A stretch of 64,000 bases of DNA from Escherichia coli. Lineage in GTDB: Bacteria; Pseudomonadota; Gammaproteobacteria; Enterobacterales; Enterobacteriaceae. Shown here in pieces: positions 1,764-27,214 of the stretch. The stretch's first letter is position 1, and each line of letters starts with the position of its first letter. The position numbers and the translations under genes are program-made. The stretch lies in the NCBI RefSeq assembly GCF_011045215.1, contig NZ_CP049201.1. The stretch is one strand, 5' to 3'. Below the pieces are notes generated by a model, which saw only the letters and a list, made by a program, of their open reading frames with translations, ran no database searches and had not been told where the DNA came from.

Positions 1764-3841
1764 TACGCCTGGTTTTTGGCTTTAGAACGGGAGATACGAG
1801 CTTCTCCGATCAGCCAGTCAAAGAGGAAAATAATCGCCAGCATCACCACGATCAGAATCGAACCATAGGCGATGGCTACGCCATATTCGCCGTCTTCAAC
1901 GCGGTTAAGAATGTAGGCGGTTGCCACGCGGGTGTCCGGCGTGACGAGAAAGACGATGGCGCTGACCGTCGTGATGGCCCGCACAAAGCTGTAGATCAGG
2001 GCCGAGAGAATGGCCGGACGCAGCAGCGGCAGTAAAATGTGGGTTATGGTTCGCAAGGAACCCGCGCGCAGGCTGAGTGAGGCTTCATCCAGCGATTTGT
2101 CGATCTGCCCCAGACCCGCAATCCCGGCGCGAATACCCACCGGAACGTTACGCATCACCATCGAGATAATCACAATTGCCGCCGTTCCGGTGAGATAAAC
2201 CGGAGCGCTGTTAAAGGCAAGAATATACGAAACGCCCGCCACCGTACCCGGTACGGCAAAGCACAGCATGGTGGTGAACTCGATGGTCTTTTTGCCTTTG
2301 AATTGTTGACGCACCACCACCCAGGCGATGAGCAGGCCAAAGATAGCGGTAATGGGAGCGGCAATCCCGGCGTAGAGCAGGGTATCCAGCAGTGAAGGCC
2401 ACGCGCCGTCGCTCATTCCCTGACCAAATAGCTTGATAAAGTTATCCAGCGTCAGGGTGTAGTCCACGCCCCAGTTCACCGTGAAGCTGCCGTAGAAAAT
2501 GCTGCCGTAGAGCAGGGCGTTAAAGGCAATCCATATCGCAAGTATGGCGACCACGCTCCACACCAGGGTGACCGGTAGCGGCTGGACGTCGCCACGGTAG
2601 GATTTGCCGGAAACCGTGACGTAAGAGCGTTTACCAATCCACATATACTGGATGCAGAACACCAGCAGCGAGAACAGCAGCAGGAAAGCGCCAAGGGTGC
2701 TGGCGGCCTGATAATCCAGCTGCGAGCCGGTAATATAGAAGTAAATTTGCGTCGCCAGTACGTCGAAGTTACCGCCAAGTACCAGCGGGTTACTGAAATC
2801 AGCCAGTGACTGTACCACGACGATTAAAAAGGCATTGGCGAGTGCGGGCTTTAGCAACGGCACAAACACGCCGTTAAAGGTTTGCCAGCGGCTGGCGCGC
2901 AGGGTGTAGGAGGCCTCTTCCAGCGAGGGATGAATGGTTTTAATGGCCCCGTCGAGGATCATAAATGCCATTGGCGTGAATGCCAGAACCTGTGCCAGCC
3001 AGATCCCGGTAAAACCGTACAGCCAGTTGGTGTTGGTCAGCCCAAACCACTCCACCATAAATTCCGTAACATAGCCGGAGCGCCCCATCATGAGCGTCAC
3101 GCCTAAGCCGACCACAAACGGTGGCGTAACGATGGGCAAAATGGAAAAGATGCGACCAATAATGGCGCTGCGTTTAGCGATGCGCGTGGTATAAATCGCC
3201 AGCACCAGGCCGAAGAAAGTACAGCCTATCCCCACCGCTATCGACAAGACGATAGAGTTGACGATCACCTGAACAATATGTGCCTGCGAGAGCACGGTCA
3301 TAAACGCCAGCGGGGCGAACTCTCCCGCGTCGTTGGTGAACATCGGGATAAAAATGGCGATGCTCGGCCAGACGATAAAAATGCCAATCAGCGCCACAAT
3401 CGCAATCAGTGAGCCGATCACGAAGCGGTCGCCGCCCAGCCATTCGAGGCGGGTTAAGGCCAGCGTCATAATCGCGCCTAGTTCAACAAACAGCACGATG
3501 GCGGCGTAGCCTAAACCGCGTCCAGCCACGGTGGCGCTGATGACGATAAACGCCATACAGAGCAATGCCCAGCTGGCATCAAAATAATGACGACTACGCT
3601 GTTCGCGTGTGACCTCACGAAACGGGCGAACCAGCAACAGACTCGGTAACAAATACCACAGCCAGCTGATATTAAAATGCGACCAGCCATAAGCCTCGAG
3701 GATCTCATCACTCGTGGACTCCAGCAGGCCATAATCGAGGCTCCAGCTCGGCAACAGTATAAATGCCAGCCAGCCCAGCAAAACCCAAAGGAAAATCGCA
3801 TCCCGCTTTTTCACGGGATGGAGTGCAAGTGTCTGTGACAT
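1763..3841 (-). CDS. afuB: ABC transporter permease, fused two-domain, AfuB/FbpB-like
   Basis: ORF track 1763..3892 (709 aa, highly hydrophobic, two permease halves). The 3892 start is a TTG; the ATG at 3841 (MSQTLALHP) is more plausible. Start is uncertain by 17 codons. Confidence 0.8.
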
Positions 3842-13819: not shown

Positions 13820-16819
<3,000 letters not shown>

Positions 16820-16820
16820 A

Positions 16821-17509
<689 letters not shown>

Positions 17510-18667
17510 TCAGGATGCGGGGATAACCAACGGTTTATTCCCGCTTAGCTCGGTCACCAGATCATTGATGCCATCGCTCATATTTTTAAAGCGCGTCAAC
17601 GGCGAACGAGTGACCACCACAAATGCGCCAATATTCTTCTGCGGGATCATCGCCATATAGGTAATGAAACCGCCACCACCGCCTGTCTTCTGAATAATCC
17701 CCGGACGACCCTCTTTCGGGGCCATATATACCCAGCCTAAACCAAGCGCATCCGCTTTGCCGGGGACATCCATGCCAATCACTTTCGTAAACTGCGCGCG
17801 CTGATAAATCAACGTCTGCATGCGATCTGCCTGGTTACTGCGCTGATAAAAATCAGATGACAAATACTGCTGCATCCAGCGCATCATATCGCCAGGCGTG
17901 GAATAGACGCCGCCGCTGCCAATTGCCGCCAGCGTGTTATTGCACGGACTGGCTCCGCGCTCAGCAACCATTAAACGGCGGCACTGATCCGGTGAGGGGG
18001 TGTAGGTGGTGTCTTTCATCCCCAATGGACGGGTAATCTGCTCTTCAAACAACTGGGTATAAGGCTTGCCGGACGCATTCGCCAGTGCATCTGCCAGCAG
18101 GTCGAACGCAAGGTTAGAGTACGCCGCCTGACTGCCTGGCGCGGCTTTCAGCTTCGCCGTAGAAAGGTATTTCCAGCGTTGCTCGCGCGTTGGCCAGACA
18201 AACACCGGACGATGTGCCGCGCCACCGGGCTGTTCACGGGGCAGGGCGCTGGTATGGGTTGCCAGATTGACCAGCGTAATGGGCGTCCCATTGTAGGTTG
18301 GCACGCGTGCGCCTGGCGGAGCATATTTACTTAGCGGATCGTTTAACTTCACGGTCCCCTGGTCGAGCAATTTCACCAGCATCTCACTGGTCATTAGCTT
18401 GGTGAGGGAAGCAATACGCACGACCGAATCCAGCTGCGGGCGAACGTTATTACCAGGTCGCGTTTCGCCATAACTGCGAAAGACGCGCTGGTTACCGTCG
18501 ATAACAACCAGCGCCATCCCCGTGGCACCGCTGCCGTAAAAAATATGATCGGCATAACGATCGACAATATCAGAGGCAAACTCCGGTTCAGTGATCGGCT
18601 GCGCCGCATGGACGGAGGTCAATGACGCCGCACACAGCACGGCAGAAAAAAGCAGACTACGTTTCAA
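17510..18667 (-). CDS. ampH: Penicillin-binding protein AmpH (class C beta-lactamase-like D-Ala carboxypeptidase/endopeptidase)
   Basis: 385 aa with signal peptide and the serine active-site motif (SLTK) of the AmpC/AmpH family. Confidence 0.93.
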   Translation of the reverse strand: MKRSLLFSAVLCAASLTSVHAAQPITEPEFASDIVDRYADHIFYGSGATGMALVVIDGNQRVFRSYGETRPGNNVRPQLDSVVRIASLTKLMTSEMLVKLLDQGTVKLNDPLSKYAPPGARVPTYNGTPITLVNLATHTSALPREQPGGAAHRPVFVWPTREQRWKYLSTAKLKAAPGSQAAYSNLAFDLLADALANASGKPYTQLFEEQITRPLGMKDTTYTPSPDQCRRLMVAERGASPCNNTLAAIGSGGVYSTPGDMMRWMQQYLSSDFYQRSNQADRMQTLIYQRAQFTKVIGMDVPGKADALGLGWVYMAPKEGRPGIIQKTGGGGGFITYMAMIPQKNIGAFVVVTRSPLTRFKNMSDGINDLVTELSGNKPLVIPAS

Positions 18668-19018
18668 CGGTGGTGTCCATAAATTGAATGAAGGTAACTG
18701 AGCGTATTTATACTACTCATTGATGGATTGCAAAGGGCGAATTAGTGCAATAATAGTGTTAAAAACGTAACGGCGCGTAAACACGATCTTTTTCCTGCTC
18801 ACCAATGCCTGCATTTGTGATCCTGCGCGTGTTAATCCGCTTATGTAAACAATCTTTGGTTTGTGAAATCCGTCGAAACAATTCTTATGGCCAGGCTGGC
18901 GAACTAAGCGCCTTGCTATGGGTCACAATGGGCGGTTTCATTTGGCTGACGCTTTGTAGCGGTCATGCGGTTAATACACAGCAGTTGTTAAAACGATAAG
19001 AAGTTAGCAGGAGTGCAT

Positions 19019-20239
19019 ATGTTTAAGTCTTTTTTCCCAAAGCCGGGAACGTTTTTTCTCTCGGCCTTTGTTTGGGCATTGATTGCCGTTATCTTCTGGC
19101 AAGCCGGTGGGGGGGACTGGGTGGCGCGTATCACCGGCGCTTCCGGGCAGATCCCGATTAGCGCCGCGCGTTTCTGGTCGTTGGATTTCCTGATTTTTTA
19201 CGCTTACTACATTGTTTGCGTAGGACTTTTTGCATTGTTCTGGTTTATCTACAGCCCGCACCGTTGGCAATACTGGTCAATACTCGGTACTGCACTGATC
19301 ATCTTCGTCACCTGGTTTTTGGTGGAAGTCGGGGTTGCCGTCAACGCCTGGTATGCACCGTTCTATGATCTGATTCAAACCGCGCTAAGTTCGCCGCATA
19401 AAGTCACTATCGAACAATTTTACCGCGAAGTGGGCGTCTTTCTGGGGATTGCGCTGATCGCGGTAGTGATCAGTGTGCTGAATAACTTCTTTGTCAGTCA
19501 CTACGTGTTCCGCTGGCGTACGGCGATGAACGAATATTACATGGCGAACTGGCAACAACTGCGTCATATCGAAGGCGCCGCACAGCGTGTGCAGGAAGAC
19601 ACCATGCGTTTTGCTTCAACGCTGGAGAATATGGGCGTCAGTTTTATCAACGCCATCATGACGTTGATCGCCTTCCTGCCGGTGCTGGTAACGCTCTCCG
19701 CGCATGTGCCGGAGCTGCCGATTATCGGGCACATTCCGTATGGTCTGGTGATTGCCGCTATCGTCTGGTCGCTGATGGGGACCGGATTGCTGGCAGTGGT
19801 AGGGATCAAACTGCCGGGGCTGGAGTTTAAAAACCAGCGAGTAGAGGCTGCCTACCGTAAAGAGCTGGTTTATGGTGAAGACGATGCCACGCGCGCGACG
19901 CCGCCAACGGTACGCGAGCTGTTTAGCGCCGTACGGAAAAACTATTTCCGCCTCTATTTTCACTATATGTATTTCAACATCGCTCGCATTCTCTATTTGC
20001 AGGTCGATAACGTTTTCGGTTTGTTCTTGCTGTTTCCGTCAATTGTTGCCGGTACGATTACGCTCGGCCTGATGACGCAGATTACCAACGTTTTTGGTCA
20101 GGTTCGCGGTGCTTTCCAGTACCTGATTAACTCATGGACCACACTGGTTGAGTTGATGTCTATCTACAAACGTCTGCGCAGCTTTGAACATGAGCTGGAT
20201 GGTGACAAAATTCAGGAAGTAACCCATACCTTGAGCTAA
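19019..20239 (+). CDS. sbmA: Peptide antibiotic/antimicrobial-peptide importer SbmA
   Basis: ORF track 19013..20239 trimmed to [24 protein letters not shown] (406 aa), matching SbmA. Confidence 0.93.
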
Positions 20240-21972: not shown

Positions 21973-22185
21973 ATGAATCTGCCTGTAAAAATCCGCCGTG
22001 ACTGGCACTACTATGCGTTCGCCATTGGTCTTATATTCATTCTTAATGGCGTGGTGGGGTTACTGGGATTTGAAGCAAAAGGTTGGCAGACCTATGCCGT
22101 CGGTCTGGTGACGTGGGTGATTAGTTTCTGGCTGGCGGGGTTGATTATTCGTCGTCGCGATGAAGAAACTGAAAACGCCCAATAA
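21973..22185 (+). CDS. yaiZ: Small membrane protein YaiZ
   Basis: ORF track 21841..22185 trimmed to MNLPVKIRRDWHYYAFAIGLIF (70 aa). Confidence 0.85.
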   Translation: MNLPVKIRRDWHYYAFAIGLIFILNGVVGLLGFEAKGWQTYAVGLVTWVISFWLAGLIIRRRDEETENAQ

Positions 22186-22208
22186 GAATATTATCGGGCG
22201 TTAAAATA

Positions 22209-26082: not shown

Positions 26083-27198
26083 ATGTTCCCAAAAATAATG
26101 AATGATGAAAACTTTTTCAAAAAAGCGGCGGCGCACGGGGAGGAACCTCCTTTAACTCCTCAAAACGAACATCAGCGGTCCGGGCTGCGCTTCGCCCGTC
26201 GCGTCAGACTACCCCGCGCGGTTGGTCTGGCTGGCATGTTCTTACCGATTGCTTCAACGCTGGTTTCGCACCCGCCGCCGGGCTGGTGGTGGCTGGTGTT
26301 GGTCGGCTGGGCGTTCGTCTGGCCGCATTTAGCCTGGCAGATAGCGAGCAGGGCCGTCGATCCGCTTAGCCGGGAAATTTACAACTTAAAAACCGATGCA
26401 GTATTAGCGGGAATGTGGGTAGGCGTAATGGGCGTAAACGTGCTGCCTTCCACCGCGATGTTGATGATTATGTGTCTGAATTTGATGGGGGCAGGCGGCC
26501 CCCGTCTGTTTGTCGCGGGTCTGGTGTTGATGGTGGTTTCCTGCCTTGTCACCCTCGAGCTGACGGGCATCACCGTGTCGTTCAATAGTGCGCCGCTGGA
26601 ATGGTGGCTCTCCCTTCCCATTATTGTCATTTATCCTCTGCTGTTTGGCTGGGTCAGCTACCAGACGGCGACTAAACTGGCGGAACATAAACGCAGGTTG
26701 CAGGTCATGAGTACCCGCGACGGCATGACGGGCGTGTATAACCGACGTCATTGGGAAACTATGTTACGCAATGAATTTGATAACTGTCGGCGGCATAATC
26801 GCGATGCAACGTTACTGATTATCGATATCGACCATTTCAAGAGCATCAACGATACCTGGGGCCATGATGTGGGCGATGAAGCGATTGTGGCGCTTACCCG
26901 ACAGTTACAAATTACCCTGCGCGGTAGCGATGTGATTGGTCGGTTTGGCGGCGATGAGTTTGCAGTAATCATGTCCGGTACGCCAGCTGAGAGCGCCATT
27001 ACCGCCATGTTACGGGTGCATGAAGGGCTAAATACATTACGTTTGCCGAATACGCCACAGGTAACTTTACGGATTAGTGTGGGGGTTGCGCCGCTGAACC
27101 CACAAATGAGTCACTATCGTGATTGGTTGAAATCGGCAGATTTGGCGCTTTACAAAGCAAAGAAAGCCGGACGTAACCGCACCGAAGTGGCGGCCTGA
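26083..27198 (+). CDS. dgcC: Diguanylate cyclase (GGDEF domain, MASE2-type membrane N-terminus)
   Basis: 371 aa with the GGDEF active-site motif (RFGGDEFAV) and N-terminal TM helices; matches AdrA/YaiC. Confidence 0.92.
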   Translation: MFPKIMNDENFFKKAAAHGEEPPLTPQNEHQRSGLRFARRVRLPRAVGLAGMFLPIASTLVSHPPPGWWWLVLVGWAFVWPHLAWQIASRAVDPLSREIYNLKTDAVLAGMWVGVMGVNVLPSTAMLMIMCLNLMGAGGPRLFVAGLVLMVVSCLVTLELTGITVSFNSAPLEWWLSLPIIVIYPLLFGWVSYQTATKLAEHKRRLQVMSTRDGMTGVYNRRHWETMLRNEFDNCRRHNRDATLLIIDIDHFKSINDTWGHDVGDEAIVALTRQLQITLRGSDVIGRFGGDEFAVIMSGTPAESAITAMLRVHEGLNTLRLPNTPQVTLRISVGVAPLNPQMSHYRDWLKSADLALYKAKKAGRNRTEVAA

Positions 27199-27214
27199 CG
27201 TCCGGCGAAAGTCA

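Follow-up and report, generated by a model that had tools for sequence, protein, structure and literature searches.

How do two convergent genes end their transcripts when no bases lie between them? The question is raised by iprA (formerly yaiV) and ampH, which face one another with abutting stop codons in a 64,000-nucleotide (nt) stretch of an Escherichia coli genome (contig NZ_CP049201.1, assembly GCF_011045215.1; hereafter the window, numbered from its first letter). We describe a stem-loop, H2, that lies on the ampH strand within the last 15 codons of iprA. We think it likely, if some way from certain, that H2 is the 3'-end element of the ampH mRNA and acts by intrinsic termination, which would explain why the two genes need no spacer. 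The genes and the element are laid out as follows.

16886..17509, plus strand: iprA (formerly yaiV) coding sequence, 207 amino acids (aa), a winged-helix regulator, from the list of open reading frames (ORFs) with RefSeq start and name.
17510..18667, minus strand: ampH coding sequence, 385 aa, TTG start, from the ORF list and RefSeq.
17507..17512, no strand assigned: abutting stops TAA/TCA with zero intergenic bases, by direct reading.
17464..17500, minus strand: H2 stem-loop; 16-bp stem with a single bulge, loop of 4 nt, core stem 17496..17468.
17453..17467, minus strand: U-rich tail UUUAUUCAUUUCGAU following the H2 core, tail score 4.4.

The abutment itself is secure. The plus strand at the junction reads GAG TAT TAA TCA GGA, and the sequence, the ORF list and RefSeq agree with the original prediction that the yaiV (iprA) TAA at 17507-17509 adjoins the complement of the ampH TGA at 17510-17512 with no spacer. 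RefSeq gives the identical layout in K-12 DHB4, two other strains and MG1655 (iprA 394506-395129, ampH 395130-396287; a window coordinate is the MG1655 coordinate minus 377,620), and the 1.9 kb around the junction is 99.8% identical to NZ_OZ282453. Because K-12 and relatives share this layout, the abutment is no accident of a single strain; it is real, already in the standard annotation, and unsurprising. IprA matches Pfam HTH_46 (E=6e-31) and its C-terminus, ...LPSEY, is kept to the final residue in 17 homologs, and AmpH matches Pfam Beta-lactamase (E=9e-68) with a 385-aa length that is constant in many genera.

It was also claimed that no hairpin and no terminator lies between the two genes, and for ampH this does not hold: H2, with its U-rich tail, starts 9-13 nt past the ampH stop, and the hairpin covaries across genera. 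H2 is encoded by iprA codons NKGKLVAINRLPS and reads UGAAGGCAAACGGUUG-AUAG-CGACC-A-GUUUGCCUUUA on the ampH strand, where the extended stem lies 9 nt and the core 13 nt from the ampH stop (4-30 nt in other loci). The minus strand folds at -20.9 kcal/mol, within the top 0.3% of 44-nt windows in the 64 kb, against -14.8 kcal/mol for the plus strand, which falls at the 5.7th percentile. The peptide alone does not account for this fold. When the last 22 iprA codons were randomised synonymously with the window's own codon usage, the minus strand averaged -10.7 +/- 3.3 kcal/mol and just 0.6% of recoded ends matched the observed -20.9 kcal/mol; on the plus strand, 20% folded equally well (p=0.20), so the value seen there is unexceptional.

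H2 also scores as a terminator. With a d'Aubenton-Carafa-type discriminant that uses modern energies, and whose d values are approximate, the H2 core and its E. coli tail UUUAUUCAUUU (score 4.4) give d=+14, and all plus-strand candidates near the junction are negative. A scan of the whole window (128 kb) ranks H2 18th among 50 sites with d>0. Eight of the 19 best-scoring sites, H2 included, lie no more than 30 nt after a same-strand gene stop; the remaining 11 are probably false positives, which sets the precision of the discriminant near 50%. There are about 10 comparable sites away from gene ends per 128 kb, so the chance of one landing within 30 nt after a given stop is about 0.2%. The MG1655 RefSeq record annotates no terminator at the iprA/ampH junction, and an Rfam 15 scan of 16000-19500 on both strands returned no match at E<=1.

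Comparison across the Enterobacteriaceae carries the argument further. IprA homologs were aligned and the alignment was used to fetch 80 loci, one genome per species; gene order was compared in 83 related loci, covering other Escherichia, Citrobacter, Salmonella, Raoultella, Kluyvera, Enterobacter, Lelliottia, Trabulsiella, Buttiauxella and Pluralibacter. In all fetched loci except that of Atlantibacter, which has no ampH downstream, iprA and ampH are convergent. We compared 78 convergent loci, and the gap between the genes could be measured in 74 (the AmpH match was incomplete in the other four). Gaps range from -4 to +44 nt and are mostly -4 to +5 nt. Every Escherichia locus has a gap of 0, and Citrobacter and Raoultella have 0-1 nt. 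The value is -4 (TTAA, with bases shared) for Kluyvera, Pseudocitrobacter and part of Enterobacter; most Enterobacter and Lelliottia have 2-5 nt, and a few genera 11-17 nt. Gaps of 33-44 nt occur only in Salmonella and Buttiauxella among the fetched loci, and Cronobacter, fetched separately, has 34 nt. Judged from this distribution, the convergent junction is ancient.

The last 66 nt of iprA and its stop codon form a gapless alignment of 78 distinct sequences. Without a supplied structure, RNAalifold predicts an 8-bp core pairing columns 13-20 with 36-43, including three covarying pairs, and the core is paired in 618 of 624 cells. Codon analysis indicates that the residues K-G-K-L and R-L-P largely dictate five of the eight core pairs. 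The remaining three link third codon positions on both arms, and these covary. Pair 13-43 is AU in 42 sequences, GC in 31 and unpaired in 3 (Pro CCU/CCC with Lys AAA or Arg CGG); pair 19-37 is AU in 51, GC in 23, GU in 3 and unpaired in 1 (Arg CGU/CGC with Lys AAA/AAG); and pair 16-40 is CG in 75, UA in 2 and unpaired in 1 (Leu UUG/UUA with Gly GGC/GGU). An approximate neighbour-joining tree was made from the remainder of iprA. Parsimony on it requires seven or more changes in each column of pair 19-37, and the double switches are thus recurrent rather than a single inherited change. Over the full 16 pairs of H2, 85% of cells are paired, compared with 80% in shuffled controls and 47-55% when the partners are slid by one column; in Kluyvera and Pseudocitrobacter the register of the inner stem is shifted by one, which lowers the pair counts, and the hairpin is retained. 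The best minus-strand fold past the ampH stop averages -19.9 kcal/mol against -12.2 kcal/mol in background blocks and lies in the top 10% in 60 of the 78 loci. From these folds, ampH would seem always to have a 3' stem-loop in the loci compared. Within E. coli, the 66 nt of H2, tail and junction are identical in 5386 of 5416 records; across the 1.9 kb around them, identity is only 95-99% in 1854 of 5422 records.

The same alignment indicates which strand is under selection. Where one strand can form a G.U pair, the other has an A.C mismatch, and the non-Watson-Crick cells over the 16 pairs are strongly skewed: 142 are G.U when read on the ampH strand, against 10 when read on the iprA strand (20 and 3 within the core). 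One-sided core changes, A to G in pair 18-38 about eight times and C to U in pair 20-36 about four times, always produce ampH-strand wobbles. This asymmetry points to ampH-strand RNA as the selected structure, rather than iprA mRNA or DNA. We regard the structure of H2, its statistical rarity, its covarying conservation and its strand specificity as established.

Several loci serve as natural controls. The four aligned loci with a 33-44 nt spacer each bear their own canonical hairpin and U tract oriented for ampH, with d=3 in S. diarizonae, d=33 in S. arizonae and d=39-42 in two Buttiauxella. Five of the six core mismatches fall in three of these four loci (S. arizonae and the two Buttiauxella), as against one mismatched locus among the 74 others; by our own arithmetic the excess has a Fisher p of about 2e-4, for lineages that are not independent and belong to only two genera. 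In Cronobacter, one core pair is lost through an Arg-to-Lys change, and the 34-nt spacer of Cronobacter sakazakii, between its convergent iprA homolog and ampH, holds the canonical hairpin ATAACGGCGCC-TGTGC-GGCGCCGTTAT (fetched locus 3156-3195). Atlantibacter, without ampH downstream, has an H2 core with two mismatches and three wobbles. An iprA-like paralog located away from ampH in Citrobacter farmeri keeps five Watson-Crick pairs, one G.U and one mismatch out of seven, and is an ambiguous control. Insertions have also reached the element: IS1 lies within the 3' part of iprA in E. coli E308 (fetched locus 788-1548) and in strain VTB97420v. In E308, the match to the window picks up again precisely at 17468, on the border of the H2 core, so the stem is kept and the U-rich tail is replaced by IS1.

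Taken as a terminator, H2 would work as follows. RNA polymerase transcribing ampH would terminate intrinsically after H2, where a U-rich tract follows in Escherichia, Citrobacter, Kluyvera and relatives. The ampH mRNA would then end at about 17455-17461 (MG1655 about 395,075-395,081), and its 3' untranslated region (UTR), about 50 nt long, would lie antisense to the last part of iprA. The spacer between iprA and ampH would be absent because the ampH 3'-end element sits within iprA. Such a location would explain both the dispensable spacer and the nearly frozen synonymous sites in the last iprA codons. Minus-strand polymerases that escape H2 would be stopped by Rho or possibly by a second hairpin beyond iprA, and iprA transcripts, having no intrinsic terminator, would run antisense into ampH until Rho-dependent termination. 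Three further features bear on these steps.

16842..16865, minus strand: back-stop hairpin TGCCCGTCAAGGATTTGACGGGCA, d=+22.4, -16.5 kcal/mol, tail TTATTTAGATTAAAT, 21 nt upstream of the iprA start.
17517..17544, plus strand: hairpin H1, -14.6 kcal/mol, inside the last ampH codons (GNKPLVIP), 7 nt past the iprA stop.
17610..17830, plus strand (antisense to ampH): C-rich, G-poor stretch, a candidate Rho loading region for iprA read-through.

The back-stop hairpin lies between the stop of an upstream autotransporter gene (16796-16798) and the iprA start at 16886, and its U-rich tail is present only on the minus strand. It is a possible terminator for antisense or ampH read-through transcription that continues beyond iprA. 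An older model of yaiV is a 222-aa ORF starting at 16841, as opposed to the RefSeq start at 16886, and the hairpin falls within the first codons of that longer ORF, which favours the 207-aa RefSeq start.

On the side of iprA, we find no comparable element. A plus-strand site with d>0 is present in only one of the 78 loci, and not in E. coli. The fold past the iprA stop is indistinct from its background (-13.7 versus -13.6 kcal/mol over the 78 loci). H1 was considered as an iprA terminator and rejected: it has a poor U tail (UUAGCUCGG) and d=-14.7, its rank at 6% of windows is background-like, recoding gives p=0.08, and there is no conservation across genera. H1 is probably non-functional. In the C-rich stretch, 80-nt plus-strand windows at 17610-17750 contain 25-33 C versus 14-17 G. 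As for where iprA transcripts end, we infer from this composition that they probably run on in antisense to ampH and are stopped by Rho within the C-rich stretch, 100-250 nt in. The published Rho table of Adams et al. 2021 (PMC7815308) lists no plus-strand (iprA-sense) region in this stretch.

With zero spacer, any complete transcript of one gene enters the other, and some antisense overlap is unavoidable. The reciprocal read-through proposed in the original prediction is thus borne out in part. It probably applies to iprA much as claimed, with no plus-strand terminator in 77 of 78 loci, but on the ampH side H2 would limit the overlap to about 50 nt.

A number of observations weigh against H2 as an intrinsic terminator. 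Among the curated Term-seq 3' ends of Adams et al. 2021 (PMC7815308), which cover three conditions, none falls at 3950xx-3953xx on either strand. In SMRT-Cappable-seq (Yan et al. 2018, PMC6131387), ampH forms a unit of its own, for which starts are listed at 396318, 396319 and 396363 but no termination site. Low expression may lie behind the missing ampH 3' ends in both datasets. For the ampH strand, Adams et al. 2021 also report a Rho region (395316; Rho score 2.48, p=5.5e-5). It corresponds to window position 17696, which is inside ampH, 186 nt short of the stop codon. Untreated cells gave 56 reads in an 800-nt window before this position and 57 in one after it; with bicyclomycin the figures were 98 and 247 (PMC7815308). 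The counts are low and the resolution coarse, and the downstream window is mostly antisense to iprA. These counts suggest that H2 is not an efficient stop, or that other minus-strand transcripts are present, or that Rho acts inside a weakly translated ampH; weak translation from the ampH TTG start could expose the gene to Rho termination within it. The Rho data thus suggest that H2 is not a fully efficient intrinsic terminator and give some support to read-through on the ampH strand. The U tract that follows H2 is interrupted (UUUAUUCAUUU), and the discriminant that H2 passes has a precision of only about 50% in the window. Finally, stems in Enterobacter and Lelliottia are stronger (-20 to -25 kcal/mol) but their tails are U-poor, and only 44 of the 78 loci have a minus-strand site with d>0. 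Literature text searches found nothing relevant on an ampH terminator, on a small RNA, or on yaiV and ampH jointly. A peak for HusR, from systematic evolution of ligands by exponential enrichment (SELEX), lies within yaiV; the motif is absent there and the peak is unrelated.

Much of this evidence would also fit a different role for the same hairpin. It is conceivable, at clearly lower odds than intrinsic termination, that H2 is a protective 3' stem-loop, with Rho terminating ampH transcription downstream and 3'-to-5' exonucleases trimming the transcript back to H2. Stem-loops are described as marking the 3' ends that processing leaves on Rho-terminated transcripts (Dar and Sorek 2018, PMC6061677, and bioRxiv 10.1101/2023.10.02.560326), and the preprint summarises reports of stem-loops without U tracts at E. 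coli Rho-dependent 3' ends. H2 resembles these in being a conserved hairpin near a stop, in a region with a Rho-sensitive signal: the region on the ampH strand is bicyclomycin-sensitive, and downstream reads rise 4.3-fold. The very stable stems and U-poor tails of Enterobacter and Lelliottia suit such a role, and the covariation and strand bias of H2 suit it equally well. What sets H2 apart from processed Rho ends is its E. coli tail, which is U-rich and passes the intrinsic-terminator discriminant. Past H2, the minus strand shows no clear excess of C over G, the two being about equal in most 80-nt windows. The Rho region precedes the ampH stop and may mark termination within the gene. A trimmed 3' end is likewise not listed by Adams et al. 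2021. We infer that H2 terminates or stabilises the ampH mRNA, and of these two functions intrinsic termination is the one we favour.

The original prediction went further and saw possible mutual interference; taken as a model, it has no functional terminator at all, and long mutual read-through would lead to interference by antisense pairing or polymerase collision. The zero intergenic bases and the lack of an intrinsic terminator for iprA in 77 of 78 loci agree with it. In published Term-seq no 3' end is called at the junction (Adams et al. 2021), untreated minus-strand reads are equal around 395316, and the Rho table, at its low counts, is compatible with some read-through. Unlimited read-through, however, leaves the compensatory synonymous changes in H2, the ampH-strand wobbles, and the decay of H2 beside separate intergenic terminators all unexplained, and the stability of the junction across the family argues against a harmful conflict. 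We consider this account unlikely.

A still less likely possibility is that H2 is an overlapping bidirectional terminator of the collision type, at which converging polymerases meet and both transcripts end. Terminators of this type have been put forward for gene pairs that converge in E. coli (Ju, Li and Liu 2019, relayed in bioRxiv 10.1101/2022.10.23.513370). With these, iprA and ampH share a convergent arrangement, the conserved boundary stem-loop that the model requires, and an expectation of overlapping 3' ends, but they differ in that H2 is selected and terminator-like on one strand only and precedes the stop codon on the other. Since H2 precedes the iprA stop on the plus strand, iprA transcripts that ended there would be mRNAs without a stop codon. 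On that strand, d<0, the fold is at the 5.7th percentile, and recoding gives p=0.20. The model also needs frequent collisions, and both genes appear weakly expressed. Lastly, it is highly improbable that H2 acts in the iprA mRNA, or is a protein-bound DNA palindrome (for IprA, for example), or is a chance by-product of the KGKL...RLP peptide. In favour of these readings, H2 lies in the gene for a regulator and forms a perfect inverted repeat there, its 9-bp arms separated by 15 bp, and five of its eight core pairs are fixed by the amino-acid sequence. Against them, its pairing is maintained while its sequence varies, as suits base pairing and not sequence recognition, the wobble asymmetry of 142 to 10 favours ampH-strand RNA, the plus-strand fold is unremarkable, and the motif, without an Rfam match, is present a single time in the window (0.02 expected by chance). 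We reject both the DNA palindrome or protein site and the iprA mRNA structure on covariation and wobble asymmetry.

Intrinsic termination at H2 would place the junction within a familiar class. Like other intrinsic terminators that occupy the 3' coding end of a convergent neighbour, H2 is a short-loop stem with a U-rich tail, just past a stop codon and overlapping the last codons of the opposing gene. It differs in that hairpin and tail lie wholly within the neighbour's coding sequence, with zero spacer, in that the U tract is interrupted, and in that the 3' end is a predicted one. The window offers milder examples in two other tight convergent pairs, where the terminator hairpin of one gene reaches into the final codons of its partner. 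The proC hairpin (27206..27166) overlaps adrA by 33 nt across a gap of 16 nt, and the ddlA hairpin (22200..22176) overlaps yaiZ by 10 nt across a gap of 23 nt. The annotated 50 kb around the site includes seven convergent pairs, with gaps of 133, 77, 16, 23, 58, 0 and 158 nt. The iprA/ampH junction is the extreme of a common compact convergent layout and in that sense is ordinary.

The autotransporter gene upstream of iprA (13820-16798) is an intact 992-aa ORF, named EhaB in one related strain, and its MG1655 equivalent, yaiT, is a split pseudogene. In Cronobacter sakazakii the order autotransporter, iprA, ampH, sbmA is kept, with an isochorismatase-family gene inserted. The second iprA-like gene of Citrobacter farmeri (60% identical; fetched locus 2501-3124) follows another autotransporter gene, with a LacI-family gene 281 nt further on, and an autotransporter-plus-iprA pair may be mobile or duplicated as a unit. 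A 259-aa protein on a 4.9-kb ENA contig has a Pfam beta-lactamase domain and yet is 99% identical to IprA over 61% of IprA; it may represent a rearrangement or a gene-calling artefact at the junction.

Convergent genes whose transcripts have complementary 3' ends can engage in excludon-type antisense regulation through their overlapping 3' UTRs. The likeness of iprA and ampH to such systems is in the complementary 3' ends alone, and the predicted ampH overlap is only about 50 nt. A coupling of the two genes is a doubtful prospect, in which iprA transcription through H2, or pairing of the ampH 3' UTR with iprA mRNA to form an RNase III substrate, would reciprocally set ampH termination and iprA mRNA stability. 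If true, a regulator of peroxide resistance and an enzyme that remodels peptidoglycan would be tied together in this way across the Enterobacteriaceae.

What is new here is an unannotated ampH 3' stem-loop, and putative terminator, wholly within iprA, which is supported by sequence statistics and comparison among genera. The same 37 nt encode the wing of the IprA winged-helix domain and the stem-loop at the ampH 3' end. This makes the junction a small, clean case of a coding sequence under a second, RNA-level constraint from the opposite strand, and one that comes with natural controls. It also has a practical side, as deletion or recoding of the iprA 3' end, or IS1 insertions there, may alter ampH expression, and the phenotypes of iprA mutants need to be checked for such a polar effect.

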